Source of the DNA: Myxococcota bacterium
GTDB taxonomy: Bacteria; Myxococcota_A; UBA9042; PHBI01; JAWLBL01
Reading direction: 5' to 3'
NCBI GenBank assembly: GCA_041687695.1
Contig: JAWLBL010000019.1
Span: forward strand, 96,001 to 160,000
Length of the DNA stretch: 64,000 nt
In this document: piece after piece, positions 28,472 to 48,190 of the stretch
Numbering within the stretch: position 1 is the stretch's first letter
Layout: each line of letters begins with the position of its first letter
Program-made: the position numbers and the translations under genes
Notes under the pieces: model-generated
What the model was told of the DNA's origin: nothing
The model's database searches: none
Seen by the model: only the letters and a program-made list of their open reading frames with translations

Positions 28472-28492
28472 GCGAGCGCAGGGGCGGCCACG

Positions 28493-30431: not shown

Positions 30432-31640
30432 ATGGCTTACTCGCAGACACGGATCGGCAGGGCTCGGATTCGCCCGCAGACCGATTGGGGCTTCGACAAC
30501 GCGGTGGCTGCGGGGTCGTTCGTCGCCGGGGACACGCTCGGCTGCGAGGTCTGGGTCCCCCAGCTGGTCGAGGAGGCGCTGCGGTCGGAGACCTTCAGGG
30601 GCGCGTTCCACGCCCACCGGGTCGTCGGCGGCTCGCGCAAGGGCGTGCAGATCACCGTCTCCATGCCGGCGCACGGGCTGTCCAGCTCGGCCCCGTCGGG
30701 TGAGCCGACCCGCACGCCGGACATCCTGCTGTTCGAGTCCGCCCTGGGGTTCGGGGCGGCGACGACGGCCGGGTTCGACGCCACCAACCTGGTCGGCGGG
30801 ACCGCTGCGAGCGTTCAGTGGACGGACGCCACCGGGCTGAACCCCGGTCAGGCGCTCCTGATCCCGCTCGCGTCGGGCCACTCGTTCGGGTGGCTGCAGA
30901 CGATCACCCCGGGGACGCCGGAAGAGCTCGTCCTGGTGACGGAGCTGTCGGGGGCTCCGGCGGCGAGCGGTCAGGTGTTTGGGTCCTACGGGGTCGCGCT
31001 GTCGACGGCGCAGTCGGCGCCGCTGAGCCTGCTGTGGGTGGGCTCGCGCGGTGAGCAGATCCGCCTGTACGACGGCGCGGTGAGCCAAGCGCAGCTGACC
31101 CGGGAGCCGTCGGGGCGGCTGATGATCTCGGCGACGCTCCAGTTCGGCGGCTGGATCGTCGACGCCGGTTCCGGGACCGCGCCCGGCCAGTATGCGTTCG
31201 GGCTCCCCGACCTGCCGGCGGCGATCGGGCGCAACGGGGCGCGCGTCATGGTGGACGGGGCGGCAATCCCGCTCTCGAGCTTCGAGCTGAGCATCACCAA
31301 CACGCTCGCCGAGGCCCCGGACATCGGCGCCCGTGAGGGCCTGGGCGCCTACGTGACGACGGACCGCGCGGTCCAGCTGACGGTGACGGGGCGCCAGCCC
31401 GACGTGTCGGCGCTCAGGAGCCCCGGTGACGAGCTCGGGACGGTCCAGGTCGACTGCGGGAACACGCCCGGCAAGGCGCTGAGCCTGCTGATGCCGGCGG
31501 CGGTCGTTCAGGAGTTCGAGCCGCTGCAGGACAGCGAGGGGGTCGTCGGCAACCAGCTGACGCTGGCCCCGGGCAACTACACGGGCGACGGCAGTTCGAC
31601 CGAGCCCGGCAACACCGTCTTCCGCATGGCGTGGAGCTGA
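30432..31640 (+). CDS. Putative major tail (tube) protein
   Basis: 402 aa, beta-rich; SFELSITNTL motif; upstream of chaperone and tape-measure genes. Confidence 0.6.
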   Translation: MAYSQTRIGRARIRPQTDWGFDNAVAAGSFVAGDTLGCEVWVPQLVEEALRSETFRGAFHAHRVVGGSRKGVQITVSMPAHGLSSSAPSGEPTRTPDILLFESALGFGAATTAGFDATNLVGGTAASVQWTDATGLNPGQALLIPLASGHSFGWLQTITPGTPEELVLVTELSGAPAASGQVFGSYGVALSTAQSAPLSLLWVGSRGEQIRLYDGAVSQAQLTREPSGRLMISATLQFGGWIVDAGSGTAPGQYAFGLPDLPAAIGRNGARVMVDGAAIPLSSFELSITNTLAEAPDIGAREGLGAYVTTDRAVQLTVTGRQPDVSALRSPGDELGTVQVDCGNTPGKALSLLMPAAVVQEFEPLQDSEGVVGNQLTLAPGNYTGDGSSTEPGNTVFRMAWS

Positions 31641-31641
31641 C

Positions 31642-32333
31642 ATGGCGATCCAGCTGATCCGTAAGACCGACACGGTGGCCCTGGTCTGCACGGCGGACGA
31701 ATCGGTCACCCTCCCCGAGGGCGCCTCGCGCGAGCCGGTCCAGTGGGTGGAGGCGGACAAGTTCCCCCACGGGGCCGACGCGACCGTGGTCACCATCCGT
31801 CCGCTCGTTCACCTCGAGGTCCACGGCCTCGCCGGGAGGGACTTCCAGGAACAGTGCCACCTGGCGGTGAGGGCCGGGCTGGTGAGCCTGTCGGGGGTGG
31901 AGACGCGCGACGAGGCGGTCGACGCTATCCCGTACAAGCTCGCCCCCTCGCTGGGGGCGGCGATCCTCTCCTACACGTTCGGGGCCGTCGACCCTTTCGG
32001 CCTGGTCGCGCCCGAACGGCGGTCTGGCTCGACCAGCTCCGGGCGCAAGGCCTCGCCGAGTGCGTCGACCAAGGGTGCTCGCCCGAGTGCGACACGAAAG
32101 AGGGTTGGTGGCTAGGCCGCGAGTGGACCTGCTGCCCGATCCGGGACCTGACCAGCGACCGTCACCTGATGGTCGCGCTGGACCTGGACGGGCTGGCTGG
32201 TCAGGGGCTCATCCGGCTGGACGCCGGGGAGTACGCGAGCTGGGTGATCGATGCGGTGCGGCTGATCCGCGCGAAGAGGGCTGACCGGGAGCGACACGAG
32301 CGCGAGCGGCTGAAGCGACAGGCGAGGGGGTGA
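31642..32333 (+). CDS. Tail assembly chaperone pair (G: 31642-32115; GT via -1 frameshift to 32333)
   Basis: In-frame slippery heptamer C CCT TTC at 31992-31998; -1 frame open to 32333, ending just before the tape-measure ATG. Confidence 0.75.
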
Positions 32334-32337
32334 CGAC

Positions 32338-34863
32338 ATGGCAGCCGGGAGAGTCGAGCTCGTCGTCCAGGCCGTCGCCGAAGATCGGATCACCGCCACC
32401 CTGAAGAGCACGTCCAAGGGCCTCGACCAGCTCCGGGAGAAGCTGAAGGACCAAGAGGAAGGGGCCGGGAAGGCGACGACCAAGTTCGGGAAGTTCACCG
32501 AAGGCCTGTCCGGGATCGTGGGCTTCGCGGGCAAGCTCGGGTTGCTGGGAGCGGCGGCCGGGGTCGCCTACAGGGCCGTCGGCGAGCTGGGCGAGGCGCT
32601 GGACGTGGTGGCCGGCGCGAAGGCGGCCGACCAGTTCGACGTGATGACGAAGTCGGTCAGGGGCTTCGAGAGCATCGTCGCGCAGGCGAAGGAGTCGACC
32701 GCCGGGATGATCCCCGAGGGGGAGATCATCCGAGGGGCGGCCCTCTTCAAGTCGTTCGGGTTGGACGTGAACCAGCTCCCGAAGGCGTTGGAGCAGGTCA
32801 GCAAGACGGCGGTGCGGACGGGGGAGGACGCCAAGTTCCTGGCGTCGTCGCTGGTCACCGGCATCTCGCGCATGTCGCCGATGATCTTGGACAACCTCGG
32901 CCTGACGGTGAAGCTGTCCGACGCCAACGCGCGGGCCGCCGAGATGTTCGGCAAGACCGCCGACGCCTTGGAGGACCAAGAGAAGAAGGCGGGGATGCTC
33001 GCCCTGGCGTTGGACCAGCTCGCCAAGGCGAACGAGCCGGTCGACCTGACCAACTCCCGAACCGCCAGTCTCGAGCGGCTGAGCGCCGGGTGGGAGAACC
33101 TGAAGGGGTCGATTCAGAGCCACCTGGCGGACGCGGCGGTGGCGGTCCTCGACTGGTTCACGACCAGCGACGAGAAGACCAAGATCCTGGTCAACGACAT
33201 CCGGGAGGTGTCGCCCGCGCTCCATGAGATGCAGGCGGCGGCTCGGCAGTCGTTCGACAGCTACATCGCGAGCGTCCAGCGGGCGATCGATCGCACCCGG
33301 GTCCTTCAGGAGATCCAGCTCGAGACCGGGAAGCGCCTCGCCGAGGGCGACGCCGATCGCATCGCTGCGGCCGAACAGGACGCGCGCGCCAAGGCGGCCG
33401 AGCAGTACGACGCCGAGCAGATCGAACGGGTCCAGGCGATCGCCCGGCTGGTGGAGTCGCGCCTCATCACCGAAGAGGAGGCGGCCAAGCGCATCAAGGC
33501 GATCGAAGAAGAGCGGGCGCGGGTGGTCAAACAGGCCGGGGATGCCTCGCGCCGGGTGACCTTCGATGCCCTGCAGGCGGAGGCGGCGCAGCGGGCGGCT
33601 CAGGAGGCGAAGAACAAGGCGCTCGCCGAGGAAATCAAGGCGCAGACCGAGATCAACGAGATGCTGAAGGGGCGCGGCCCCCTGTTGCTCGAGCTCGGCC
33701 GAGTGCAGGCGAAGCTCGCGCAGGCCGAAGGCCTCTCGGCGGAGGAGCGGCTGACGCTGCTTCAGGACGAGTCGCGCCTGATCGTTGAGGCCAAGCGAGA
33801 GCAGGACGCGCTCTACAAGGTGAAGGCGGGTGGGCTCCGGGCAGAGGGCGAGCTGATCGGCTCGAACCTGCGGCTGCAGAAGGCGCAGCTCGAGGCGCAG
33901 GTGAGCCTCACGGAAGAGCAGCGGCGGTCCGCTGCGATGCTCGCGTGGGAGATCCGCCTTCAGGAGATCGATGCCGACCTGCGCGCCCGGAAGGTCACGG
34001 CGGCGCGTGCCGAGTACGAGACCAAGCTGGCCGACCTGGCGCTCCAGAAGGAGCTGGCGAAGCTCGAGAAGGAGTCGACGGCGGCGGCCGAGAAGGCGGC
34101 GGCGAAGGAGGCGGAGAAGGTCGCCAGCCTGCAGACCGAACTCGCGCTCATGGGGGCGCGGAACGAGTCGGAGCGGGAGCTGATCCGGCTGCAGGCCGAG
34201 ATGGACCGGTTGCTCGCCAGCTCGGGGCCGATGGTCTCCGAGAGCGAGTCGCTCCAGCTGCAGATCCTGGCCGAGCGCATCGGCGCGGTTCACCGCGAGA
34301 TGGAGAACGCGAAGCTCGCCGACAGCTTCCGGGAGGTCGGGGACAGCCTCTCCTACGCCTTCGACAAGATCGGCCAGTTCAACGCCGAGCTGCCGGCGGT
34401 CGGCACGGCGATCCAGGACATCACGAAGGTCTGGGGCGACTACGCGACCGGACAGACGGGCGTCCAGGACGCGATCGTCGGCACCCTGGGGGTGCTCGGG
34501 CCGGCGACCGCCCAGTTCGTCGAGGACACCAAGACGAAGGCCGCGATCATGGCGGCGTTCGAGGCCGCGCAGGCGGTGGCCAGCTACCCGAACGTCCCGG
34601 CGATGATCGCCCACGGGGCGGCGGCGGCGATGTTCGGCCTGGTGGCCGGTGGGGTGATCCCCTCGACCGCAACCCCCAAGGGCGCCGCGACTCCGAAGAT
34701 GCCGACGCCGGAGCGTCAGCGCGAGCCGGGCGGCTCCGGCGGTCAGCGGACGGTCGTCGTCAACATTAACGGCGGGCTCTCGACCGCGCAGGACGTGGCG
34801 TGGGCGGTCCGCAAGGCCCTGTCGTCCACCGAGGGCACCGGACGCGAATCGGCGAGGTGGTGA
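32338..34863 (+). CDS. Tail tape measure protein
   Basis: 841 aa, Ala/Glu/Lys-rich helical; N-terminal VELVVQAVAED; ILDNLGL motif; C-terminal TVVVNING. Confidence 0.85.
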   Translation: MAAGRVELVVQAVAEDRITATLKSTSKGLDQLREKLKDQEEGAGKATTKFGKFTEGLSGIVGFAGKLGLLGAAAGVAYRAVGELGEALDVVAGAKAADQFDVMTKSVRGFESIVAQAKESTAGMIPEGEIIRGAALFKSFGLDVNQLPKALEQVSKTAVRTGEDAKFLASSLVTGISRMSPMILDNLGLTVKLSDANARAAEMFGKTADALEDQEKKAGMLALALDQLAKANEPVDLTNSRTASLERLSAGWENLKGSIQSHLADAAVAVLDWFTTSDEKTKILVNDIREVSPALHEMQAAARQSFDSYIASVQRAIDRTRVLQEIQLETGKRLAEGDADRIAAAEQDARAKAAEQYDAEQIERVQAIARLVESRLITEEEAAKRIKAIEEERARVVKQAGDASRRVTFDALQAEAAQRAAQEAKNKALAEEIKAQTEINEMLKGRGPLLLELGRVQAKLAQAEGLSAEERLTLLQDESRLIVEAKREQDALYKVKAGGLRAEGELIGSNLRLQKAQLEAQVSLTEEQRRSAAMLAWEIRLQEIDADLRARKVTAARAEYETKLADLALQKELAKLEKESTAAAEKAAAKEAEKVASLQTELALMGARNESERELIRLQAEMDRLLASSGPMVSESESLQLQILAERIGAVHREMENAKLADSFREVGDSLSYAFDKIGQFNAELPAVGTAIQDITKVWGDYATGQTGVQDAIVGTLGVLGPATAQFVEDTKTKAAIMAAFEAAQAVASYPNVPAMIAHGAAAAMFGLVAGGVIPSTATPKGAATPKMPTPERQREPGGSGGQRTVVVNINGGLSTAQDVAWAVRKALSSTEGTGRESARW

Positions 34864-34867
34864 CGCG

Positions 34868-36493
34868 ATGGCGACGATCTACATCGATACGGTCGCGGGC
34901 TCGGACGCTTCGCCTGACGCCACCAACCCGGCGACGCCGGTGCAGACGATCGGCGAGGCGCAGACCCGGGCCACTGTCGGTGACAGCACGTTCGGGTCCG
35001 GCGACACCATCAAGTACCTGAACGCCGGCCCGGTCCCCCCGATCCCGATCAGCACGAAGGCCGGGCTCACCTACGAGGCGGCCGACGGCGGGACTGAGGT
35101 CGACGCGACCGGGCAGAGCAGGGGGGTCTACCTCTACAACGGCCAGACCGCGCGCGGCTTCACGGTCCACTCGTCGACCGGCGACGGCATCGTGGGCTAC
35201 ACAGCATCGACCAGCGCCCGGCGGGTTCGCGCAGTCGATTGCACCGCCCACGGGAACGCCGGCCATGGCTTCTCCATCGTGGCGCCGGAATCGGAGATCC
35301 ACCGCTGCATCGCCCACGACAACGGCGGGCGCGGGTTCCAGACCGGCAACAACGGCTCCTACACGCTCTCCGTGGTGCTCGCGTTCGACAACGGGACCGG
35401 GGGCGTGCGGGTCAGCGGCGCGGGGGCCGTGCTCGAGCACGCGACCGCCTTCGGGAACGCGGGCGCCACCTACGCGATCGAAGTCAGCTCGAACGCGGTG
35501 GCGCGCAGCTGCATCGCCGTCGACAACCCGACCGCCTACGGGATCGGGTCCGACCTGGACGACGTGACCAACAGCTGGTCGTTCAGCTCGAACCGGTCGC
35601 TCTACCACACGACGGCTGACTTCTTCGGCGGCGCGACCCCCACCGGCTGCGGGACCACGGACCCGCTGCTGACGGACCCGTTGGCGGGCGACTTCACCCT
35701 GCAGGTGGGCTCGCCCTGCATCGGGACCGGCGTCACCGGGCTGGCGACGGTCGACCTGGCCGGCGTCGACTTCACGGACCCACCTTCGATGGGGGCCTAC
35801 GAGGCGGCGCTGCCGCCGGACCCGCGCAACCGCTGGGACCCCCGGGTGGCGGGCCTGTACGAGGTCACGTCGGGCTGGTCGGGCTCCGTCAAGGTGACCG
35901 TCGACGGCGCCGAGACCTCCGTCACCCCGAGGGCGCGAACCAGCGCGGCCGAGGTCTGGGAAGCGGTGCTCGCGCGGGTCCGGCGCCTTCACGGGGAGGC
36001 GACCCCCTGGGAGGCCTGGGCCGACGCCACGGGGAAGCTGACCCTGGTCGGAGAGGAACTGACCGAAGCGGGGTTCAGGCTGGCCTTCACCGGCAACGCC
36101 GGAGAGCGGCTGGGGTTCGATGAGTCAGGCTACGAGGGCCAGCTCCAGTACACGTCCGAGGCCGGCCCGGACGGGCTCGCCGCGTTCGGGGTCGACCTGA
36201 TCGCCGACGGGGCGCCGGCAGTGGCGTTGGCTGAGGCGGCGGCAGTCGCCGATGGGTCGCTCGCCCCGAGCACGCGGAACACGGCCAGCACGGTCACGCT
36301 TTGGGTCTACGACGCGGCGGTGACCGCGTTCGGCTACCGGGCCTTGGTCGGGCGGGTGTTCGACATCCTCGGGCCGGGCGCTCGTTGGTTGGGGCGGCTG
36401 CAGGTGCGCGGGCATCGGGTGGTGAAGCGGGGGCAGTCGTCGGGCGCGCCGGTCATGCTGGCGGAGCTGCGCTGCGAGGCGGTGGCCCTGTGA
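34868..36493 (+). CDS. Tail protein with parallel beta-helix domain
   Basis: Repeats AHGNAGHGF, AHDNGGRGF, AFDNGTGG, AFGNAG; DFTLQVGSPCIGTG...MGAYE cap motif. Confidence 0.65.
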   Translation: MATIYIDTVAGSDASPDATNPATPVQTIGEAQTRATVGDSTFGSGDTIKYLNAGPVPPIPISTKAGLTYEAADGGTEVDATGQSRGVYLYNGQTARGFTVHSSTGDGIVGYTASTSARRVRAVDCTAHGNAGHGFSIVAPESEIHRCIAHDNGGRGFQTGNNGSYTLSVVLAFDNGTGGVRVSGAGAVLEHATAFGNAGATYAIEVSSNAVARSCIAVDNPTAYGIGSDLDDVTNSWSFSSNRSLYHTTADFFGGATPTGCGTTDPLLTDPLAGDFTLQVGSPCIGTGVTGLATVDLAGVDFTDPPSMGAYEAALPPDPRNRWDPRVAGLYEVTSGWSGSVKVTVDGAETSVTPRARTSAAEVWEAVLARVRRLHGEATPWEAWADATGKLTLVGEELTEAGFRLAFTGNAGERLGFDESGYEGQLQYTSEAGPDGLAAFGVDLIADGAPAVALAEAAAVADGSLAPSTRNTASTVTLWVYDAAVTAFGYRALVGRVFDILGPGARWLGRLQVRGHRVVKRGQSSGAPVMLAELRCEAVAL

Positions 36494-37155
36494 GGTACCT
36501 GATCGGATGGCTCGACAGCGGCTTGCCCGGCTACCGGTCGCTGACCATCGGAGGGACCGGGCACACGATCCCCGACGCCTACCAGCGGGTGACGGAGGCG
36601 GTCGACGCCCTCTCGAGCGAGCTGGCGGCGTCCGGGTGGAGCGCCGAGGTATTGGCGAACGGCCGCGTCAGGCTCACCGGCTCATCGGCCGACCTGACCT
36701 GGCCGGACCGGCTCGGATGGCTGTTGGGGTTCGAGACCGAACCCGGCGACAGCGACACCGGGAAGACCTCGTTGACGAGCTCGTCGGTCCCGCCCGGGAT
36801 CGTCCCGCTCTACGGGGCCGACGTGGAGGCGGTCGACCTGACGCAAGAGGAAGACCTGAGCGTGGATCGCCACCTTCGCGGGCACGGTTACGTGTGGGGC
36901 GGGGCGGCGGTCTGGCGGGTTCGTGCGATGGCGTCGGCGGAGGCGGTTCGCGCCCTGAAGGCGGGATGGGTCCTCAGGGGAAAGGTCACGCTGAGCCCGA
37001 CCTTGCACCCCGCGACCGCCGGGGCCTGGGACGCGGAGACCAACCCGGGCGGCTACTTGGACGGTCACGTCATGGGGTTGGAGTCGCTGACCTGGCGCGG
37101 TGACGCGCGGCTGGTCGCCGACCTGACCCTGCTGTTGGTGAGGGAACCCGCATGA
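36490..37155 (+). CDS. Putative tail protein
   Basis: GTGA-coupled ORF in tail module. Confidence 0.55.
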   Translation: MRYLIGWLDSGLPGYRSLTIGGTGHTIPDAYQRVTEAVDALSSELAASGWSAEVLANGRVRLTGSSADLTWPDRLGWLLGFETEPGDSDTGKTSLTSSSVPPGIVPLYGADVEAVDLTQEEDLSVDRHLRGHGYVWGGAAVWRVRAMASAEAVRALKAGWVLRGKVTLSPTLHPATAGAWDAETNPGGYLDGHVMGLESLTWRGDARLVADLTLLLVREPA

Positions 37156-39689
37156 CGGACGCGACGTTCAGCCGAGCCCTCCAGCGGGGCCATTCGACCG
37201 TCTACAGCCTGACCATCGAAGGCATCCCCTACGTGTGGGTGGAGCGGGAGTACCAGCAGACTTCGGCGTCGGGGGCACCGGCGGTGCCGGCCGGCTATCT
37301 GGGGGCGGTGCCGGCGCTGTTGGTCGACGACGGCCAGAGCATCAGCGTGGAGCTGAAGCGCGAGAGCGGGATCGCCTCGGGGAAGGCCTGGGACATCGTC
37401 CTGAGCTTCGCGGCCCTGGAAGACGCGGAGCTGCTGTCGACGTTGTTCCGCCGGCCGGAGGGGCGGGCGCAGCTGACGGCGGACGTGGCGGGCGACGACA
37501 CCGTCCTGACGGTCGACGACACGGCCGAGGTCGACGACGCCACGCACCTGTACCTGGGGCGCGAGTGCCTGGCCGTCTCGGGGTCGACGGCGACGACCCT
37601 GACCGTCACGCGGGGCGTCGTCGGGTACCCCTACGCCTATCAGGCGCAGAGCCCGTCCAGCTACCGATGGGTGACGACCAGCCCGACCGTCTGGAAGGGC
37701 CGGCTGGTGACGCTGACGGAGCACCTGGTCTCGCCGGAGGGCCGGCTACTCGACGGGACGGTGGGGCAGGTCGGGGACTACTCGCGGGTGCTCTGGCGGG
37801 GCTACCTGGACGGCACCCCGAAGGTGACCGCGAAGGGGATGCAGCTGCGGGCGCAGGCGCTGGTGCGGCTGGCCTCGCAGGACATCGGGTTCGAAGTGTC
37901 GCTCGAGACGGCGACAAGCCTCACCGGGTCGATGTTCGAGCACCACCTGGACTACCCGATCGTGGTCACGTCGGCCGACACGGTCCGGGTCCGCATCGTG
38001 TGGGACGAAGGGCTCAACTCGGGCGACAACGTCTACACGGTCCCGCAGCTGGACCCGTCGTTCACCCCGACGGTGATGACGTACAGCGAATGGTGGGACC
38101 TGGTTCGGGCGGACCTCGAGGCCCTGGTCGCGCTGGAACCGTGGTTCAAGGGGCCTGGCTCGCTGTTCGGCTACCACACGTTCCACGAGATCGGCCCCGG
38201 GAAGGTCGACCATTCCAACCTCATCCTGAAGGAGGATGGGTACGCGCTCGCGGTGACGGTCACGGCCGATGAGGGACGGTGCTACTGGTACGAGCCCGGC
38301 GCCTACCTGGGCTCCGTCTCGCACACGACGGTCATGGGGGACCTGCACATCCCGGTGGGGCCGACGTTGGGGACGGGCTGGCTGCCCGTGCGGGTGATCG
38401 CCGGGGAGGGGATTCAGGACTACGACATCGGGGACAGCGGGATCGGCGTCGTCGACGGTGACCCGAAGGAGATCCTCCGATGGTCGGAGGCGCTCGACCT
38501 GGGCAGCGACACCATCCGAATGATCTACATCGCCGAGCGGACGATGAACCTCACGGAGCCGGCCGAGCTGTGGGCGGACGGGGTGAGGATCAAGGCGCTG
38601 TCCGGCTACTCGGGGACGCTGATGGATGGTCTGCTGACCCTGTTGACCAGCTCGGGGACCGGGCTGCGCTCGGCCACCTGGGACACCTTGGAACTCGGGA
38701 TGGGGCTCGGGGTCCCGGAGGCGATGATCGATGTCGACGGCGACGGGGTCACCGCGATCAAGGGCGGGCTCGAGGCGCACGCGGAGCTGGACCCCACCGC
38801 CATCCTGGTCGCCGAGGGGCGCAGCTCCATCGAATCGCTCGCCGGTGGCTGGTTGTCGCTGTCGGGGCTCTGCCTGTCGCAGGCGGACGGGCTTCTGACG
38901 ATGGTGGAGACGGATCCGGCCGATGACCCCGACGCGGTGGTGATCACGGCCGACGATGTCCTGGTCGAACGCCTCGAGCCAGAGGCGGAGGTCGACACCC
39001 CGAACGAGGTGCGGATCGACCCGAGCGGGATTGGGGTGGAGCGGACGCAGCTCCTGTTCCGGGACACGACCTCGGTTCAGGCGGAGGCGCCTCGGACGCG
39101 CGACCTGTCGGTTCCCGGGATTGACCCCATCCTGGCGGCCGTCTACGCCCACGGGCTGATCTCTCGCGGGCTCGGCCAGAGCATCGTCCGGCTTCGCCTC
39201 GCCCCGTGGGCGCGGGTTCAGCCGGGCCAGCGGGTCCGGCTCTCGCTGTCGCACCCGATGCTCTACGACTGGAACGTCGGGGCGCGGGGGCCGGCGGTGG
39301 TGAACGCGCTCGCGCTGGGCGTCGAGACCAACCTGGTCGACGGCACGCACGCGGCGACCTTCATCCTGGCCGGGCTGCAGGACGTGGCCCGCTACCTCTG
39401 CCCGTGCGCCGAGGTAGCGACGGTCGACACGGTCCGGGACGTGACGGTCGACGAGCCCCAGTGGTTCGCGGTCGATGACGTGGTCACGCTCTACACGCCG
39501 GGCGCCGAAGCGAGCGAGCAAGTCACGCGGACCGTGACGGCCATCGCGGGCGCGACGCTGACGTTCGACGCCGACCATCCGGCCTGGCTGGCGTCCGGCG
39601 CCATCGTCACGTACCCGCCGCACGGGGCCGCGAACGACGACCAGCGGACCCACGCCTACGTGCGACCCGACACCCACTGGAGCGCGTGA
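37152..39689 (+). CDS. Putative tail tip/baseplate protein
   Basis: 845 aa, coupled to neighbours, position in tail module. Confidence 0.6.
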   Translation: MTDATFSRALQRGHSTVYSLTIEGIPYVWVEREYQQTSASGAPAVPAGYLGAVPALLVDDGQSISVELKRESGIASGKAWDIVLSFAALEDAELLSTLFRRPEGRAQLTADVAGDDTVLTVDDTAEVDDATHLYLGRECLAVSGSTATTLTVTRGVVGYPYAYQAQSPSSYRWVTTSPTVWKGRLVTLTEHLVSPEGRLLDGTVGQVGDYSRVLWRGYLDGTPKVTAKGMQLRAQALVRLASQDIGFEVSLETATSLTGSMFEHHLDYPIVVTSADTVRVRIVWDEGLNSGDNVYTVPQLDPSFTPTVMTYSEWWDLVRADLEALVALEPWFKGPGSLFGYHTFHEIGPGKVDHSNLILKEDGYALAVTVTADEGRCYWYEPGAYLGSVSHTTVMGDLHIPVGPTLGTGWLPVRVIAGEGIQDYDIGDSGIGVVDGDPKEILRWSEALDLGSDTIRMIYIAERTMNLTEPAELWADGVRIKALSGYSGTLMDGLLTLLTSSGTGLRSATWDTLELGMGLGVPEAMIDVDGDGVTAIKGGLEAHAELDPTAILVAEGRSSIESLAGGWLSLSGLCLSQADGLLTMVETDPADDPDAVVITADDVLVERLEPEAEVDTPNEVRIDPSGIGVERTQLLFRDTTSVQAEAPRTRDLSVPGIDPILAAVYAHGLISRGLGQSIVRLRLAPWARVQPGQRVRLSLSHPMLYDWNVGARGPAVVNALALGVETNLVDGTHAATFILAGLQDVARYLCPCAEVATVDTVRDVTVDEPQWFAVDDVVTLYTPGAEASEQVTRTVTAIAGATLTFDADHPAWLASGAIVTYPPHGAANDDQRTHAYVRPDTHWSA

Positions 39690-40678
39690 TGGCCTACGAC
39701 GTGATCAAGTACGGGACGCTCGCGGGCGGGCTTCGGGGGAACGCTCCGGCGTGGGGGCGCCTCGTCGCGAACCACGACGCGCTGTACGAGGCCTACGCCC
39801 CACCGATCACATATGGGGCGTCGTCGGAGGCGGACCCCCTCGTCGTCGCCGACACCGCCGACGCGAGCCTGTCGGAGACGTACCAGCCGTACCTCCGCTG
39901 GATCGTGCCTCGGGACCTGGACAACGTCCCGGTGGCGGTGACGGTGATCGCGCGCTGCACAGCAAACCAGGTGGGGGTGAAGCTGGTCAGCGGGGCGAAC
40001 GAGGACTCCATCGGGGTGGCGTCCCCGACGTGGATCGTCTTCACCCTGACGGTCACCCCGGACGGGTCGCCGGGGCCGGCGCCGCTCTACGGGCGCGAGG
40101 TGCGCCTTGAGATGGCGGCGACTACCGAGCTGGCGACGGCCGCCGACATCCTGACGGTGAGCGCGCACTACGCCCCGACCAGCGTCCCGTCCGGCGTCCA
40201 ACCGTCGGGCTGGGCACGCATGGCAAGCTCGCCGGTGACGGACGCTGACGAGCCGCTGACCAGCGAGAGGGTGGCGCGGCTGATCAACGGGCCGGTCTAC
40301 CTGGCGAAGGACCGGCCGGCCTGCGTGGCGTCCATGCTGCAGGACACGGCGGACGCCAACCGGGGCGGCGGTCGCTGGTCGACCCTCTCGAGCGACTGGG
40401 TCACGGCCGGCAAGGTCTCCATCCCCCCGCAGCCCAAGGGGACGCCCCCGATGGTCTACGGGGTCGCGGTCTACACCGGCGGCGACGACACGGAGCTAAA
40501 CCTCACGGTGCCCGGGACTTCGGCCGGCCTGTCGTTCAGCGGGGCAGGGTGGAGCTACGCGACGTTCGCGCACAACAACCCGGGCGCCCCCCTCAGCGGG
40601 TTGGTCCGGCTCCGAACCACGGGCATCAAGGCGAGCCTGCACACGCTGCAGGTGTTCCGCATCGGCGAGGTGAGCTGA
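39686..40678 (+). CDS. Putative tail-associated protein
   Basis: 330 aa, beta-rich, coupled ORF. Confidence 0.55.
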   Translation: MMAYDVIKYGTLAGGLRGNAPAWGRLVANHDALYEAYAPPITYGASSEADPLVVADTADASLSETYQPYLRWIVPRDLDNVPVAVTVIARCTANQVGVKLVSGANEDSIGVASPTWIVFTLTVTPDGSPGPAPLYGREVRLEMAATTELATAADILTVSAHYAPTSVPSGVQPSGWARMASSPVTDADEPLTSERVARLINGPVYLAKDRPACVASMLQDTADANRGGGRWSTLSSDWVTAGKVSIPPQPKGTPPMVYGVAVYTGGDDTELNLTVPGTSAGLSFSGAGWSYATFAHNNPGAPLSGLVRLRTTGIKASLHTLQVFRIGEVS

Positions 40679-40679
40679 G

Positions 40680-41261
40680 ATGGTGACGAAGGCCCCGCTC
40701 GCGACGCCCCTTTCGATGATGGCGCCGGTCGCGCTGACGGACCGGGCGCTCGCCCGCGTGACCCACCTGGCCTACGCAGACATCAACCAACACACGCTGG
40801 CGACCGCGTTCGGTGGACCGGCGACCTGGCTCCCGGTGGACCTCGAGTGCTCGTCACCGGGCGTGCCGACGACCGGCCAGCTCCTGTACCGGGTTCCGCT
40901 CGGGGTGACGCACTTGAAGGTGCGGGCGCGGGTCCAGGGCAGGGGGACGCTGCGCGTGACGAGCACCGACCTGGCCGGCGTCGACCTGGACGCGGAGGGC
41001 GCGCTTTTCAGCTGGTACACCGACGAGATGGACCCGTCGCTGCTGACGGTCGAGTTCGGGATGTCCGTCTCGACGACCAAGCTGGACGACACGGCGACGG
41101 ACGCGCGACGGCACCTGATCGTGTCGGCGTCCAGCGCGATGGCCTGGCAGGACGTGATCCTTCACCTGTCGCTGGACGCGGCGACGGCGGACGTTCACGA
41201 GTTCGCGAAGCTCTACAGCCTGGCTCTCGAGCCGCTGCACCCGCTGCTGGCGGCCAGCTAG
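40680..41261 (+). CDS. Putative tail-associated protein
   Basis: 193-aa ORF continuing the late operon. Confidence 0.5.
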   Translation: MVTKAPLATPLSMMAPVALTDRALARVTHLAYADINQHTLATAFGGPATWLPVDLECSSPGVPTTGQLLYRVPLGVTHLKVRARVQGRGTLRVTSTDLAGVDLDAEGALFSWYTDEMDPSLLTVEFGMSVSTTKLDDTATDARRHLIVSASSAMAWQDVILHLSLDAATADVHEFAKLYSLALEPLHPLLAAS

Positions 41262-41398
41262 AGGGGTTCGCAGCCCATGATCTGCCGGGCCATGTCGCCG
41301 CCGGGACAGCACTGGGTCCCGGGCTCGTAGCCGGTCGGCATGTCGGCCTCGCACCCGGCGAGAAGGGCGGCGAGCGCGCAAACGATCAAGCTCCGCAT
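41258..41398 (-). CDS. Small antisense lipoprotein (46 aa; not in ORF track)
   Basis: Manual translation MRSLIVCALAALLAGCEADMPTGYEPGTQCCPGGDMARQIMGCEPL*; lipobox LAGC; fills the gap between two late genes. Confidence 0.55.
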   Translation of the reverse strand: MRSLIVCALAALLAGCEADMPTGYEPGTQCCPGGDMARQIMGCEPL

Positions 41399-41493
41399 GG
41401 TGGTCACCCGTTGAGATGGAGGTCGGCACCGGTCCTATCGCACGTAGGCCAGTGAAGGCGCAGTCGAGCGCCCCCAATCGAAGAGGCGGCACG

Positions 41494-41979
41494 ATGGCAA
41501 CCTACGGAGACAAGAGGAAGGCGCACGTCGAACCGGTGCGCGTGGTCGGCATCGGGACGGACGTGGCCGAACCGGGCGCGACCATCGATGGCGTCACGAT
41601 GGTCGTCGGGGACAGCGTGGCGGTGCTCGGTGTCGAGGGCGCGGGGATCTACGACTGGAACGGCGCGGCCGTCCCGATGACACGGCGCGACGACCGTCCG
41701 ATCGGCTTCACCGCCGGGACGGCGTTCGTGGTGCTCGAGGGCGACGACTGGGGCGGGAGGATCATCGCGGTCACGGACGCCGAAGAGGGGATGCCCGTCG
41801 TGCTGACGCCGGCTCGCCACAACTTCAGCGCGACCTCCGCCCCGACGGCCGCCGACGACGAGGACAGCCTCTACGGGCCGGGCTCCATGTGGGTCGACAC
41901 CGTGGCGGGTACCGCCTACCTCTGCACTAGCGGGGCGACCGGCGCCGCCGTCTGGAAGCAGTTCACGTTCGTCGCCTGA
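41494..41979 (+). CDS. Putative tail fibre/decoration-like protein
   Basis: TIDGVTMVVGDSVAV...GIY; APTAADDEDSLYGPGSMWVD...ATGAAVW motifs seen in phage fibre proteins. Confidence 0.55.
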   Translation: MATYGDKRKAHVEPVRVVGIGTDVAEPGATIDGVTMVVGDSVAVLGVEGAGIYDWNGAAVPMTRRDDRPIGFTAGTAFVVLEGDDWGGRIIAVTDAEEGMPVVLTPARHNFSATSAPTAADDEDSLYGPGSMWVDTVAGTAYLCTSGATGAAVWKQFTFVA

Positions 41980-42008
41980 TCGGCGGGCTTCCGACGGAGG
42001 GTTCCACG

Positions 42009-42335
42009 ATGACCGAGACCACGAAGAGGCACCCGCACGCGAAGATCGTCGCCGCCATCATCGCCGCCTTGGTGGCGATCGGCGGCGGGGTCTACGGGCT
42101 GGGCGAGACCGAAGGCGTGACCACGGTGACGACCGCGACCGTGCAGGGCCTGGACGCCCGGGTCGCGGCCAACACGGTGGCGATCGCCGAGATCCGTGTC
42201 CAACAGGAGGCGGCCAACCAGGTGCTCGTTCGGCTGGACCGGACGATCGAACGCCTGGACGTGACGCTGGCCGAACTCGCCCGCGTCGTCGCCCGCATGG
42301 AGGGGCGCGACGCCATCCTGGGCACGAGCAAGTGA
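42009..42335 (+). CDS. Membrane-anchored coiled-coil protein (i-spanin- or holin-like)
   Basis: RBS GGAGG; single N-terminal TM plus heptad coiled coil. Confidence 0.5.
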   Translation: MTETTKRHPHAKIVAAIIAALVAIGGGVYGLGETEGVTTVTTATVQGLDARVAANTVAIAEIRVQQEAANQVLVRLDRTIERLDVTLAELARVVARMEGRDAILGTSK

Positions 42336-42685
42336 AGCGGGTCCTGTTCGCGGCGCTGCTGGCCGGCTGTTCGGTCGACCTGCAGCGCCGGCCTGACCAG
42401 TTCCCCCCGCTCGAGCTGGGCGCCGGGCCATGCACGGTGACGATCGCGTCCGAACACGCGACCGTCACCATCCACCTGGGCGACGTGTCCGCGCTGGTCG
42501 TCAGAGAGGCGACGGTCCGAGCCCTCAAGGGGCTGGCCGGTCAGGGCCTACAGGTCACGCCGATGATGATCGCACTCGTCGAGGGGCTCACGATTGCCGG
42601 GGTCGACGAGGGGCTCTGCCGGGTCCTCGACAAGGCCCGCAGCCATCTCAACGGCCGACTGGACCTGCTGGTCGAACGACGCTGA
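42332..42685 (+). CDS. Lipoprotein (o-spanin-like position)
   Basis: MKRVLFAALLAGC lipobox; GTGA overlap with upstream gene. Confidence 0.55.
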   Translation: MKRVLFAALLAGCSVDLQRRPDQFPPLELGAGPCTVTIASEHATVTIHLGDVSALVVREATVRALKGLAGQGLQVTPMMIALVEGLTIAGVDEGLCRVLDKARSHLNGRLDLLVERR

Positions 42686-42781
42686 CGCGGGCTCGACGCT
42701 TCCCGCTTGCTCGCGACTAGCGTGTTCCTCTTGAGACCGTTTCCCTAGCGGCCCGCCACAGAGCCTTGCAGGCACAGGGCC

Positions 42782-42939
42782 TAGTGGTCGGAATGGGGAA
42801 TTCTGCAACTTCTTGGGTTGACGGCGGCCCATCTAGCCGCCATCGTTGTAAGCCTCCAACGACGACGCGTTCGGCGAAACGAGCCCTCCGGGGGGAGGGG
42901 CGTGCCGACCTCGTTACCGCCTCCGGCCCCAGTGGCCGA
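42782..42939 (+). repeat. ~155-bp diverged copy of host nrdJ upstream region (59447-59601)
   Basis: 51-bp identity 42857-42907 = 59522-59572, with colinear similarity on both sides. Confidence 0.9.
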
Positions 42940-43470
42940 AGCGCGGCGACGTGTGTTGACCCGTAAGCCTCCCCCACAGCAGGTTCCAGCCAACACACGA
43001 ACAGTCCGTCACGGCACGCTTCCCGTTCTGACACGGGGAGGGCAGCACATGCCCGGGCGTAGGTGCTCGGGCCTGACGACGGAAACGGAGCAGTGCTCCG
43101 TAGCCTCGGTCAGGAGAAGCCACCTCGCCCGAACCAGGGCTGGGTTGCGTTCCGGCAGGTGCGAACCAAGACCAGGAGACAGAGAACGAACAAGGGGCTG
43201 CAACGCAGCCAAGCTACGAAGCAGCCCCGTGAAGACCTAGACCAACCAAAAAATCACCAGAGCTTGCTGGCAACTGCTCAGCGCGCTGGCCGGCGCGCCG
43301 CAGGTTGGCAACCAGGCGTGCGAACAACTCTGTCCAAGGCGTTCGTAGGTCCCGGTCGAGTAGATGTCAAGCGGGCTTGCTGCAACCCAGAGACCTGGGG
43401 GGTCGGCTGCGTGGGCGTTCCACCGTAGCTGCACCGGTTTCCCGGGTACTGCAGGCCACCTGCAGTACGC
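42850..43470 (+). ncRNA. Candidate large structured non-coding RNA or long leader (strand inferred)
   Basis: No convincing ORF; many nested local and long-range inverted repeats with A-rich linkers. Confidence 0.4.
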
Positions 43471-43501
43471 CTCCGTGCGTTCCGCACAAAGGCATCAAGC
43501 C

Positions 43502-43588
43502 ATGGTCGAGTTCCTGTTCGGCATCATCCTCGGCATCATCGCTCGCGACGTGTGGCCCCGTGGCACCCGTCCGCCGGCGAAGAAGTAG
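43502..43588 (+). CDS. 28-aa hydrophobic peptide
   Basis: MVEFLFGIILGIIARDVWPRGTRPPAKK; followed by strong hairpin. Confidence 0.35.
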   Translation: MVEFLFGIILGIIARDVWPRGTRPPAKK

Positions 43589-43609
43589 CAGGGGAGCCTG
43601 ATCGCGCGG

Positions 43610-43640
43610 CGGGTTCACGGGGAACGGTCCCGTGAACCCG
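43610..43640. terminator. 12-bp stem hairpin between convergent genes
   Basis: CGGGTTCACGGG / CCCGTGAACCCG perfect inverted repeat. Confidence 0.55.
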
Positions 43641-43659
43641 ACCGTAACCTCACAGGCGC

Positions 43660-43971
43660 TCAGCCGCCCCCGACGCGGGTCCCGCCGCCCTCGTAGCCGT
43701 TGCCGACGCCGGTCCCGTTTGCAGCGAAGCCGTTGCCGACGGTGCCTTCGTACCCGACGGTCCCCTTATAGCGGCCGTCGTCGTCGTAGCCGCCTCCAAT
43801 CTCGGTTTCCTTCGCGGCGACCGTGAAGCCACCTCGCTCGACGCCGTTGTCGGCGGAGGCGGTGAAGCCGCCGGTGGTTCCGCTGCTGTCGTGGGAGGTG
43901 ATCAGGAAGCCACCACCCGAGTAGCCGCCGGTGGCCAGAAGGGTCGCAGCCGCGATGATGATGAGCTTCAT
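43660..43971 (-). CDS. Small secreted Gly-rich protein
   Basis: RBS GAGG; signal MKLIIIAAATLLA; Gly/Tyr-rich mature part. Confidence 0.55.
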   Translation of the reverse strand: MKLIIIAAATLLATGGYSGGGFLITSHDSSGTTGGFTASADNGVERGGFTVAAKETEIGGGYDDDGRYKGTVGYEGTVGNGFAANGTGVGNGYEGGGTRVGGG

Positions 43972-44063
43972 GGGAGCCTCTGTGGTAGGTGCCGGTAACC
44001 CGCAGACGGGCAACCGTTCCACAGAATTCCAGGGAGCTCGTGCTAAGTGCAACGCTTCGGTCG

Positions 44064-44780
44064 TCAGCTGCCCTTGGAACGGTCAATCTTTGCCTGGAGT
44101 GTCGCCCTGCGCTCTCGGCTCCGAGCGGGCTGCACGTAGAAGAACTCCAAGAGGTCATCGAGGACTTGGAGCATGAGCTGAGCCTCGTTCTCTTCGATGT
44201 CGAGGATCTCACCTGTCACGCCGTCGGCCTTCAGGTGAACCGCGATGTTGCCCAGCTGCCGGACGTGGTCCAGTTCCTCGTGGAGGTGCGCCGGGAACCG
44301 CTGTTCGGCGAGCTTCAGGAGCCCGGCAAGGTTGGTCCGAGGCGAGGCGCTGGTGGCCTCGAGCAGGATGGCTTCCATGCACCGGCGGGAGAGCGCCGCC
44401 GAGGCCCGAGGGCTGATGTCGAGGATGGCCCAAGCCTCGCGCCAGTCCTTCGCGATCCCCTCGGGCACGGCCGGGTCTGGGGCGCGAGAGCGGAAGCGGG
44501 GATAGATGACCTGGTCAGGCCAGGGAGTACCGGAAGCGAGACCGATGTCGGCTCCGATGACCAGGATCGGGAAGTCACAGACTGGACATAGGAATCCGAC
44601 GAGCGCCCACTCGCTCCGGCCTCGACTGCAGACCCAGTGAAAGGTCAGCGGAACCCACTCGCTCTCCTGCTGCCAGCTCTGGCCACCACGGACGCGCATG
44701 GGCTCGCCCAGGTTGACCTTCTCTTGACAGTGTGGACAGGTCACCCGCGAGCCCTGATAGTAGACGTTCTCGTCGTTCAT
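44064..44780 (-). CDS. DUF4145-like (HEPN-related) protein with Zn-ribbon, copy 1
   Basis: CPHC...CPVC; DWREAWAILDISPRASAALSRRCME; VRQLGNIAVH (R-x4-6-H-like). Confidence 0.75.
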   Translation of the reverse strand: MNDENVYYQGSRVTCPHCQEKVNLGEPMRVRGGQSWQQESEWVPLTFHWVCSRGRSEWALVGFLCPVCDFPILVIGADIGLASGTPWPDQVIYPRFRSRAPDPAVPEGIAKDWREAWAILDISPRASAALSRRCMEAILLEATSASPRTNLAGLLKLAEQRFPAHLHEELDHVRQLGNIAVHLKADGVTGEILDIEENEAQLMLQVLDDLLEFFYVQPARSRERRATLQAKIDRSKGS

Positions 44781-44944
44781 CGTGGTCTCCGACGATTGCT
44801 CTCGTGGTCAACCTACCCCACCGGCGTCGATGCGCAACCGCGTCGATGGTCGAGGCTATCGACCTGCTTCAGCGACGGCGTCCGAACTGATGAAGGACGC
44901 GGCGGTCAAGGCAGGAGTCGAGAGGAGCGTAGAAGACCAGGACG

Positions 44945-45319
44945 TTGACAGGGTGGGATCTCGCGATCCTCATCAGAGCTATGAGACCTACCCACGACGT
45001 CCCTGCATCCGTGCTCGAGCTGATGGCCCAGCAGACGAGCTGGACCTGGTGCATCGAGGTCCTGACCGGATGGCTCAACAGGACCAAGCGCTGCTACACG
45101 GTCTACGACGTATACTGCTTCCTGGTCGAGCACAGGCCCGGTGAGGCGGTCGACTACGACTACATCGCCCGTCGCCTCAGCCAGAGCAGTACGCCCGGCA
45201 CCTACTACTGGGTGGCCTTCGGTCCCGACCATGAGTCGGCTCGGCAGTACTACGAGGCCCTGCGTGGGCGTCTGTCGCTGGCCGAGGTCGACGGAGGCGA
45301 GCTGTCGCTGACGAACTAG
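44945..45319 (+). CDS. Hypothetical protein
   Basis: ORF between the two DUF4145-like paralogues, on the opposite strand; start uncertain. Confidence 0.45.
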   Translation: MTGWDLAILIRAMRPTHDVPASVLELMAQQTSWTWCIEVLTGWLNRTKRCYTVYDVYCFLVEHRPGEAVDYDYIARRLSQSSTPGTYYWVAFGPDHESARQYYEALRGRLSLAEVDGGELSLTN

Positions 45320-46017
45320 GTAGCCTTCGAGGTCTTGGCCTTCAGGGCAGCTTGCCGCTGAGCACGCTTGGCCGGCTGGACGTAGTAGAAGTCCAGCAAC
45401 TCATCCACGATGGTGAGCAGCGCCTCGGCCTCGTCCTGGTTGATCTCCATGATGGATCCCGTCGTGGAGTCCGACTTGAGATGGACTGCGATGTTGCCCA
45501 TCTTCCGAACCTCGTCGAGGTGCTGTTCGAGGTCTGACGGCAGCGTGGGCCCGACGCTGGTGATCATGTCGACCAGCCGAGTCTTCGGGTTCTGCTTGCC
45601 AGCGTCAACGAGGGTCGCCTCGATGCAGCGACGCGAGAGCGCCGCCGAGGCCCGTGGGCTCAGGTCGAGGATCGCCCATGCCTCCTGCCAGTCCTTGGCG
45701 ATGTCGGCAGGTACGACTGGGTCTGGCGCGCGGACTCGAGCGGCAGGGTGGACGATCCGTTCGTCAAGGACTTTCCCACCTGTGATGTCGTTTTGCACGG
45801 TTCTCAGGACGAGCACGAGTTGATCGCAGACTGGGCAGACGTAACCCCTTAGTTCTTGACGCTGCTGGCTTCTGTTCCGTTGCCAGGTGAGGAACAAGGA
45901 CACGAGGGTCTGTCGGTCGCGGTCGTCGAGCGCAAAAACCTGTGTGTATTCGGGTAGGTTGATGGGCTGCTCGCAGTGGGGGCAGGTAACCCGGGCCTTC
46001 GGCTCGTAGCTCGTCAT
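45316..46017 (-). CDS. DUF4145-like (HEPN-related) protein with Zn-ribbon, copy 2
   Basis: RBS AGGAGAGG; CPHC...CPVC; DWQEAWAILDLSPRASAALSRRCIE; VRKMGNIAVH. Confidence 0.75.
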   Translation of the reverse strand: MTSYEPKARVTCPHCEQPINLPEYTQVFALDDRDRQTLVSLFLTWQRNRSQQRQELRGYVCPVCDQLVLVLRTVQNDITGGKVLDERIVHPAARVRAPDPVVPADIAKDWQEAWAILDLSPRASAALSRRCIEATLVDAGKQNPKTRLVDMITSVGPTLPSDLEQHLDEVRKMGNIAVHLKSDSTTGSIMEINQDEAEALLTIVDELLDFYYVQPAKRAQRQAALKAKTSKAT

Positions 46018-46139
46018 GTTCCTCTCCTAGGGGGCCAGAGCTTAGCGGACCCTCAAGGATCCGCAACGTCGTTCGGGACGGACGAACCTTGATCGGGTCT
46101 GTCGTCTTCCGCTACTCAGAGCTGAGCGGAGGAACGCCA

Positions 46140-47747
46140 ATGACCGAGCCCACGCAATCGACTGCGCGACGAGCTGTCATCTACGCCCGTGTCTCGAGCC
46201 AGGGGCAGCGGGACCGCCAGACCATCGAGTCCCAGCTCCGGGTCTTGCCCGAGTTCGTCGAGTCCCGGGGGTGGGAGCTGGTCAGGCCCACCGACACCTA
46301 TATAGACGATGGGTTCTCGGCCAAGGCCGGGGGACTCGACGACCTCAAGGGCCGGGCCCAGCTGCTCTCGGATGCCGAGGCGGGCCTCTTCGACCTGGTG
46401 GCGGTGGTCGACCAAGACCGGCTCACCCGATCGGAGGACTTGGTCGAGCGCGGCTACATACTGGGTTCGCTCCAGCGGGCTCAGATCCAGATCGCGGTTC
46501 AGTCCACCGGCCAGGTGCTCGACCTCTCGAGTTCCGAGGGCGACCTGCACGCCAGCCTCCAGGGGTTCTTCAGCGCCGAGGAGAACCGCAAGCGTCGGAA
46601 GCGAACTCTCGATGGCAAGCAGACCGCGATCAAGCGTGGCCGTAAGCCCTCCGGCCCAACCCCCTACGGCTACAACTACGATCGAACCACCGGTACCTGG
46701 ACCATCGACCAGGACCAGGGTGCGATCGTACGCGAGCTCTTCGAACGGGTCGCTGGCGGCGAGTCCTGCCACAGCCTTGCCAGGGAGCTGAACGAGCGAG
46801 GGGTCCCTCGCCCCAGGAGCGGCGCCTGGCAGCAGGCGCGGGTCAACCAGATCGTCCGCCAGCGCGCCTACATCGGGACCTACACGGCCGACAAGAAGAG
46901 GAACCTGACCATCGAGGTCCCGAGGATCGTGAGCGACTGGCTGTTCGAGCAGGCCGAGATCGCCCTGCAGGCCAACCGGTTCCACCTCAACCCCAAGACC
47001 AACCACTACAACCTGGCCCAGGGGATCGGGGTCTGCGGGGTCTGCGGCCAGGACATCCTGCTTACGGGCAACAAGCTCAAGAAGCGGTACTACGTCTGCC
47101 GGTCCAAGAAGGGGCTGGGCAAGGACGTCGAGCGCTGCCCCAACCCGATGCGGCAGGTCGAGCCCACCGACGAGAAGATCTGGGCGCAGGTCCGCTACGT
47201 GCTCGAGCAGCCCGACCTCCTGGAGGGAGCGGTCCAGCTCCGGATCGATCGGGCCAACGAGACCGACTGGGAGGCCGAGCTCAAGGAGACCGAGTCCAAG
47301 CTGGCCGCCATCGATCGCCGGGCCCAGAACGTCCTCAACTCCTACATGAAGGGGTTGATCGCCGACGACGTCTACGAGCAGCACCTGGTGTCGACGCAGC
47401 GGGACCGAGAGGGGCTGGAGCGCCAGCGCGATCTGGCCAACCAGAACCTGCTGGCCGCCAAGAGGACCGAGCAGGAGACCCGTGCTCTTCGGGCGACCGT
47501 CGAGAAGCTCAAGCAGAACCTCGACACCGCGTCACCAGAAGAGCGCCAGAAGCTCGTCAGGATGCTGATCCCAGGCCGGGACGGGTACCGGATCACGTTC
47601 GAGCAGGACGGGACCCTGACCATCATGGGGATGGTGGATGCCGGGACACCCGCATCGAACAAGGCTGGATCAGGGGAAGGAGAGGGCGGCTCGGGTGTCT
47701 TCCACGATGACGGTGTATCAACCAGCTGCGACAGAAGATCGGGGTGA
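46140..47747 (+). CDS. Large serine recombinase (phage integrase)
   Basis: YARVSS catalytic Ser, DRLTRS, PYGY, recombinase domain, Zn-ribbon CGVCG...YYVC...C, coiled coil; ORF runs across the right att junction. Confidence 0.95.
47698..47722. other. Right att junction (phage arm TCTTCCAcgatgACGGTgt + core ATCAAC)
   Basis: Inverted-repeat partner of 12417-12437; recA coding resumes at the core. Confidence 0.9.
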
Positions 47748-48190
47748 TGTTCGGCAACCCCGAGACGACGACCGGGGGCAACGCCCTCAAGTTCTACTCG
47801 AGCGTCCGCCTGGACATCCGGCGCATCGGGGCGCTCAAGAACGGCGACCAGGCCATCGGCAACCGCACCCGGGTGAAGGTGGCCAAGAACAAGGTCGCGC
47901 CGCCGTTCCAGACCTGCGAGTTCGACATCGTCTACGGACGCGGGATCTGCCAGGCGGGCGAGCTGCTCGACATGGGCGTCGAGGTCGGCGTCATCGACAA
48001 GTCCGGCGCCTGGTACTCGTGGCGCGAGGGGCGCCTGGGCCAGGGGCGCGAGAAGGCGCGCGAGGCCCTGATGGCCGACGAGGCGCTGTTCCGGACCCTG
48101 CGCGCCGAGACGATGGCGCGCCGGCTGGGGCGGCCCGCGCCGGTGGTCGAGGTGGCGGGCGACGACGGCATCGAGGCGCAGGCCGCCTGA
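47717..48190 (+). pseudogene. recA: recA 3' fragment (resumes [18 protein letters not shown]...)
   Basis: [49 protein letters not shown]; in frame with the 5' half after excision. Confidence 0.97.

Follow-up and report, generated by a model that had tools for sequence, protein, structure and literature searches.

We examined a window of 64,000 nucleotides from a Myxococcota bacterium (assembly GCA_041687695.1, contig JAWLBL010000019.1, positions 96,001 to 160,000 of the forward strand), in which a tailed prophage interrupts one of two recA paralogues and carries a large serine recombinase gene at its right end. The attachment site of the phage, attP, lies inside this integrase gene. Integration swaps the last 20 residues of the enzyme for seven that are read from recA DNA, and excision would restore them; recombination therefore toggles its own enzyme between two isoforms. 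We hold this architecture and the isoform toggle with high confidence. The exchanged tail ends in a motif that recurs at the C-terminus of many homologues. The features that carry the argument are listed here in coordinates of the window.

11838..12416, plus strand: 5' part of recA, 193 codons (Pfam RecA positions 3-189), whose frame joins 47723 onward
12411..12416, plus strand: attL core ATCAAC, with the putative crossover AA at 12414-12415
12416..12438, plus strand: P' half-site, with ACCGT at +6..+10 and TGGAAGA at +16..+22 from the AA, symmetric with the P arm
12417..12480, plus strand: left phage arm, which in the circle provides the last 20 codons and the stop of a 548-residue integrase ending LRFRLVV
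12417..47722, plus strand: prophage, recognised by a drop in G+C and by Pfam and PHROGs matches
46140..47747, plus strand: integrase gene in its prophage form, 535 residues, with Resolvase, Recombinase and Zn_ribbon_recom domains
47697..47719, plus strand: P half-site, within integrase codons about 520-527
47717..47722, plus strand: attR core ATCAAC, with the AA at 47720-47721
47723..47747, plus strand: recA DNA giving the last seven residues and the stop of the prophage-form integrase, out of the recA frame
47723..48190, plus strand: 3' part of recA, 155 codons (Pfam RecA positions 185-261)

The insert spans 35,306 bp (12417-47722), has a lower G+C content than its flanks and is bounded by the identical 6-bp sequence ATCAAC at attL and attR. 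Removing 12417..47722 in silico leaves a single uninterrupted recA frame, including its canonical stretch, so that precise excision would restore the host gene, as for SPbeta in spsM or for prophages of the comK type. Matches to Pfam and PHROGs identify a winged helix-turn-helix protein, a terminase large subunit, capsid and tail tube proteins, two DUF4145 proteins and the integrase. Together, these observations show that a tailed prophage was placed in one recA paralogue by a large serine integrase. The host genome (7.97 Mb in 63 contigs) holds a second, intact recA on another contig (C27); the halves of the split gene match it at 68% and 59% identity. No attB or attP junction was found elsewhere in the assembly, and records of cultured phages contained no close relative, the best being a partial match at 32% identity. 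Beyond the 5' recA fragment the frame continues without a stop through 37 codons of phage DNA (11838-12527), and ssb (48213-48653) lies directly after the split recA.

The integrase open reading frame occupies 46089..47747 on the plus strand and encodes 552 residues from a TTG or 535 residues from the ATG at 46140. An earlier note on this DNA, made from its letters, had claimed that the frame crosses the right junction and ends in recA-derived sequence, and that in the excised circle it continues through 12417-12480. The coordinates and frames are as that note gave them: the prophage form ends in ..RRSG at a stop (47745-47747) within recA DNA read out of frame, and joining the phage arms in silico (47722 to 12417) reproduces a frame that is open to the TAA at 12478-12480 and encodes 548 residues. 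The difference between the 535- and 548-residue integrases consists of the seven recA-derived residues in the former and the 20 phage-encoded residues ending LRFRLVV in the latter. Residues 12-168 match the resolvase-type catalytic domain (PF00239, E 4.4e-19), and matches to the Recombinase domain (PF07508, E 1.4e-16) and to the zinc ribbon (PF13408, E 2.2e-6, 28.3 bits against a cut-off of 25.3) complete the domain set. In 40 aligned sequences, R17-V18-S19, containing the nucleophilic serine, is invariant, as are C299, C302, C320 and C333. All three Pfam domains are kept in the 535-residue prophage frame, which is not split into inactive pseudogenes of the SSV type.

We asked, as the earlier note had proposed, whether homologues conserve the tail of the excised form, and found that they do. 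A homologue search scored 8000 candidates and gave 444 relatives at E <= 0.001, and the best 120 of these 444 were analysed. The seven-residue motif [LVI]-R-[IFL]-R-[LV]-V-A is the exact C-terminal end in 57 of the 120 and falls within the last 20 residues in 13 more (two of them doubtful); it is absent from the remaining 50, the window's own prophage form included. The family consensus at the very C-terminus is ..R.R[LV]VA, and among the 57 exact enders the last three residues are LVA in 25, VVA in 13 and IVA in 3. The last seven residues of the window's excised tail are the same as those of P0002, the closest homologue among the matches listed (53% identity). By score the similarity clears chance by a narrow margin: the best local score of the window tail against the tails of 119 homologues is 36, and the maximum from 200 shuffles is 35. 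A 20-codon open frame is by itself unremarkable at 65-70% G+C. At the DNA level, 15 tail-bearing genes use five codons for the arginine at -6, four for the arginine at -4, four for the alanine at -1 and three for the valine at -2. Because the motif codons vary synonymously, the tail is conserved at the level of the protein and, on this codon evidence, is a translated and selected terminal element. In a tree of the 120 proteins from which the last 60 residues had been removed, the window integrase lies in a tail-bearing clade with P0002, P0003, P0007 and P0004, and truncated forms are grouped in a few clades.

The structure was considered through P0002, which AlphaFold2 modelled from an alignment of 80 rows with a mean predicted local distance difference test score (pLDDT) of 90.2. 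Its fold resembles those of the SPbeta (Foldseek E 1e-18), Bxb1 and phiC31 integrases, and comparison with 9dxh_A gave a VIA-align Z of 20.8 with a root-mean-square deviation of 21.9 over 452 residues. Helices at 369-455 form a long coiled-coil region in the model of this homologue, which is 53% identical to the window protein. A disordered linker at 499-509 (pLDDT <50) is followed by a predicted beta-strand at 516-521 (pLDDT of the block 75-86). Since the alignments mostly end at model residues 490-496, this terminal strand is without a solved counterpart among the structures compared.

Rebuilding attP from the two phage arms gave a site that is symmetric about the core AA, with matches at 15 of 30 positions. 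The matches form two blocks, ACCGT (positions 6-10) and TGGAAGA (positions 16-22), and as many as 15 arose in only 0.4% of the 2000 shuffled sequences. The site measures ∼46 bp and lies wholly within the open reading frame of the excised-form integrase, not outside it as is usual for serine integrases. An attP outside the integrase frame is a habit of large serine recombinases rather than a defining catalytic feature. In its anatomy the rebuilt site is, by sequence, of the usual serine-integrase type (a short core, ∼50 bp and imperfect inverted arms), with AA as the probable crossover dinucleotide. Frames and attP symmetry thus agree with the claim that attP lies inside int and that integration swaps the C-terminus of the enzyme, and the arrangement extends beyond the window to a family of related integrases. 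The terminal motif is located 45-65 bp from the crossover, beyond the symmetric arms of attP. For the window this position, together with the synonymous codon variation, rules out that the conserved end is merely a DNA signal within attP.

Searches for further carriers covered the window's order (18 genomes), its class (107) and a sample of the phylum (401) and returned one other carrier, G301, in whose class 11 of 401 sampled genomes hold the family in 12 copies. A search of genome contigs with the single protein returned only distant Firmicutes recombinases of 20-42% identity. The genome copies are arranged as follows.

G617: reversed, in recA; the excised-form frame, reconstructed from the two junctions, goes on for 20 residues to an LRLRVVA end
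G442: reversed, in recA; the excised form carries LEIRIVG in frame, with no stop after it
G667 and G658: reversed, in recA; the excised-form frame runs on for 104 and 105 codons, respectively, to a shared stop
G301: reversed, in recA; a stop codon inside the core gives the same protein in both states, with ..LQLRLVA and a stop in the +1 frame
G435 and G711: reversed, in recA; the far junction was not found
G568: at a second recA site, the recA N-terminal half and int being convergent; the recA junction lies 269 nt past the stop, and the prophage keeps ..INLRVVA
G717, two copies: neither recA gene is interrupted, and the tail is retained in the genome copies
G675: the recA genes are uninterrupted, and the motif is absent
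G599: recA halves 115 kb apart, with int in the middle

The int frame crosses the junction in the window, G617, G442, G667 and G658. These reconstructed sequences show that the geometry of attP within int recurs in several lineages, in distant clades of the tree and in both orientations, and that it is not obligatory for the family. The attP rebuilt for G667 and G658 is a near-perfect 23-bp inverted repeat. Their prophage-form integrases (L192 and L193) end in ..AQ[VL]Y.AG, and the extensions of the excised forms are about 60-65% identical to each other; that of G667 has no start codon before residue 62. The extensions looked similar to a helix-turn-helix, a candidate that was dropped when Pfam and PHROGs gave no match. 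In G301 (contig C10, L175/L176), a 45-kb prophage sits in recA, and the int stop falls within the 5-bp core with an intact-looking tail just past the crossover; the tail in the +1 frame could be a relic or a frameshift site.

Several observations concern the recA targets themselves. The second insertion site lies 36 bp downstream of the window's (after ..KIGIVFG; ..TTC GGC AA|C CC..) and is used by G568 (L185/L199). The 115-kb interruption of recA in G599 (L195/L196) has its right junction at this second site and its left junction at the ATCAAC site. At least one intact recA accompanies the split copy in each of G301, G442, G658 and G667. In G617, one recA copy is broken between contigs C125 and C21 exactly at the att position, with C125 ending at RecA profile position 189, a break to be expected if the assembly branched where occupied and empty sites diverge.

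A further set of 87 loci, made up of 79 metagenome and seven viral loci found with the homologue alignment and of the genome locus L087, was searched with both recA halves; the far junctions of the metagenome loci lie outside the loci. In 15 of the 87, int abuts a recA half and is without the motif. Two of these (L089 and L102) carry the recA C-terminal half after int as in the window, and their 21-residue tails are recA read out of frame. In the other 13 (L087, L092, L093, L098, L099, L100, L105, L106, L107, L116, L127, L134 and L145), the N-terminal half converges on int; L098 and L100 share an identical tail, as do L105 and L106, and may be duplicates. For 12 of these 13 (L145 runs off its contig), the int stop is a TGA supplied by recA, the reverse complement of the TCA in ..TTC ATC AAC... 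The same spot in recA is used in both orientations, apparently with the same AA dinucleotide, which on the sense strand of the integrase would appear as AA or TT. Replacement tails taken from the host show no conservation; forward insertions give them 7 to 21 residues, reversed insertions none.

Six tail-bearing loci were examined for the genes that follow int. Phage endolysin, tail-fibre or baseplate genes come right after it in four (L090, L101, L118 and L167), which by this gene order are the unintegrated arrangement; of the remaining two, L120 matched only families of unknown function and L103 gave no match. In L120, 12 nt identical to recA occur 17 codons before the int stop. Three other loci (L094, L096 and L154), whose integrases belong to the lineage of G667 and G658, share the int end GGT TGA, followed by non-recA DNA with a ∼12-nt motif (..TTGTCG..TAG) resembling the recA B arm. 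We considered them as unintegrated forms in which the integrase stops at the crossover, so that no swap would occur, and rejected this, the downstream arm being asymmetric to the P arm and similar to the recA B arm. Because their arm differs from the true attP of the lineage, as rebuilt from G667 and G658, they are junctions at non-recA sites and look like insertions at secondary sites.

As to what the exchanged element does, we tentatively favour a C-terminal instability tag, placing it slightly ahead of an element of activity or directionality and ahead of a loss without consequence. LVA-type ends are good ClpXP tags. Its reader would be ClpXP or another protease system of the ssrA type, or else Lon or Tsp. 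The integrase of an incoming phage would then be short-lived and integration limited to a window of time after infection, and the prophage copy would shed the tag and be stable, ready for excision once a directionality factor is made. In the homologue set, 57 of the 70 motif-bearing proteins stop exactly at the aliphatic end, as expected if the free carboxylate is read. The disordered linker that precedes the tail in the P0002 model (pLDDT <50) and the host transfer-messenger RNA tag, which ends ALAA, are also consistent with this reading. A precedent comes from phages of the BPs class, in which, according to passages of two papers, integrases and repressors carry ssrA-like C-terminal tags and the repressor tag is removed by integration (PMC4557955, PMC8092301).

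A number of observations weigh against a tag. The last six residues of P0002 are modelled as a beta-strand with a pLDDT of about 75-86, which implies that the tail has a pairing partner and does not hang free. Its R.R pattern is unlike that of ssrA tags, and the tail of the window ends LVV, not LVA or LAA. G568 and the two G717 copies keep the tail in the genome, so removal of a tag is not a general need of the family, and in G301 the stop lies within the core and the tail in the +1 frame. In addition, the junction was absent from the public sequencing runs searched, where the best word share was 0.11. It is doubtful that the whole scheme holds, in which the full-length integrase is the integrating, short-lived form, the prophage form differs in stability or directionality, and a serine integrase is partly self-regulated and not governed by a separate factor only. 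The principle of writing the integration state into the enzyme may extend across the recA-targeting phage family, with the same AA dinucleotide in either orientation.

In a second explanation, which we consider possible but rather unlikely, the terminal element is a structural or regulatory part of the enzyme that binds to its zinc-ribbon or coiled-coil region and thereby adjusts activity or directionality. Here the full-length form would integrate, and the prophage form would behave differently, for example in site choice, in its response to a directionality factor or by less re-integration, making the system a serine-integrase counterpart of Mx8 IntP/IntX. Besides the strand at 516-521 behind its disordered linker, the motif alternates hydrophobic and basic residues. 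Work of Abe in 2021 reportedly points, by its title, to the SprA C-terminus in the control of directionality. A sentence in PMC11722253 that cites this work also points to the very end of SprA. For phiC31 integrase, a passage of a preprint describes residues D590-592, at its extreme C-terminus, as contacting the recombination directionality factor (bioRxiv 10.1101/2025.05.02.651858), and in Mx8, as a passage of PMC6070905 has it, integration changes the 3' end of int and alters specificity. However, alignments to solved large serine recombinases mostly stop before the strand and offer no equivalent of it, and if G568 and G717, which retain the tail in their genome copies, are able to excise, the tail is compatible with excision.

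Less likely again is that the exchange is a by-product, attP having drifted into the 3' end of int where a tolerant, disordered linker is encoded, with a tail that matters only before or during integration. The junction does vary in position relative to the int stop: the frame crosses it in five cases, the stop falls within the core in G301, and the junction lies 269 nt past the stop in G568; the host-derived tails vary as well, and the linker is of low pLDDT. Nevertheless, distant clades and both insertion orientations show this same geometry, and purifying selection on the tail makes it unlikely that the two isoforms are equivalent as proteins.

The earlier note had recognised neither a directionality factor nor a CI repressor in the element. 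We also recognised no directionality factor in the prophage, and no repressor gene is present at either junction, unlike the BPs type, in which attP lies in the repressor gene. Candidate regulators do exist, however: a winged helix-turn-helix protein (20148-20996), two paralogous DUF4145 proteins and a palindrome. The DUF4145 proteins (44064-44780 and 45316-46017, minus strand) have N-terminal cysteine pairs, are encoded just upstream of int and match phrog_1305, annotated 'DNA binding protein'. The 16-bp palindrome, which looks operator-like, occurs at 12484-12499, 21000-21015, 35229-35244 and 46152-46167, all four copies within the prophage; a scan allowing up to two mismatches gave six strand-matches against 0.22 expected. 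In the circular form, copies of the palindrome bracket int, one lying 4 nt past the excised-form stop and one in int codons 5-9. Scans of 12300-12800 and 45900-46300 for promoters and terminators found none. The left end of the prophage (12683-14935) encodes a Vsr endonuclease, a C5 cytosine methylase and an Eco29kI-type restriction endonuclease, a cassette whose genes are the first 3' of the full-length int stop in the circle.

Serine integrases have found wide use in genome engineering, since they act strictly in one direction unless a separate factor reverses the reaction, and what sets this direction is under active structural study. If integration does remove a conserved terminal element, this would provide a new way to influence the stability or direction of an integrase, and the two natural isoforms can be expressed and compared directly. 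The findings also point to a group of uncultured phages with recA as their special target, in hosts that have two copies of the gene. Our search of open-access papers and bioRxiv full text for phages in recA gave only Vibrio genomic islands, which share recA as insertion target according to a passage of PMC7820670. Those islands bring a replacement recA of their own, whereas here a second, diverged recA is chromosomal and what has been inserted is a tailed prophage that encodes a serine integrase.

In domain set, fold, short core and ∼50-bp attP with inverted arms, the window's system resembles phiC31, Bxb1, A118/LI and SPbeta SprA, and, as with SPbeta in spsM, the prophage splits a host gene that would be made whole again by precise excision. 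It differs from these canonical serine integrases, in which attP lies beside the gene and directionality is set through a separate factor, in having attP within the gene and no recognised directionality factor. A description of attP within a serine integrase gene was not found in the same body of open-access papers and bioRxiv full text. A close likeness is to Mx8 IntP/IntX, where attP is inside the integrase gene and integration creates a new 3' end and an altered, still-active protein (described in a passage of PMC6070905); Mx8 Int, however, is a tyrosine recombinase acting at attB1 or attB2, and the present enzyme, which targets recA, belongs to the large serine recombinases and has a 2-bp crossover. 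The earlier note had also invoked BPs. That precedent stands insofar as C-terminal tags, including one removed by integration, are documented, but it fails in that the BPs attP lies in the repressor gene and not in int, the BPs integrase having its own C-terminal proteolysis signal (as stated in parts of PMC4557955). BPs and its relatives (clusters G, I, N and P, and M. abscessus prophages) do share an attP inside a gene and C-termini that differ between viral and prophage forms, as passages of PMC4557955 and PMC8092301 describe. The BPs type remodels a repressor, uses tyrosine integrases and has a tag ending ..AA, whereas here the integrase itself is remodelled and the end is ..LVV or ..LVA; by sequence, integration removes this aliphatic end. 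SSV-type 'suicidal' integrases are archaeal tyrosine enzymes whose gene is split in two, a type that a passage of PMC7253208 calls 'so far restricted to archaea'; in the present case only the last 20 codons are exchanged, and the catalytic and DNA-binding domains all stay in one open reading frame. These precedents (the Mx8 integrase, BPs repressors and SSV integrases) are all tyrosine-recombinase systems, and the present case would extend such integration-dependent gene remodelling to the serine recombinases.

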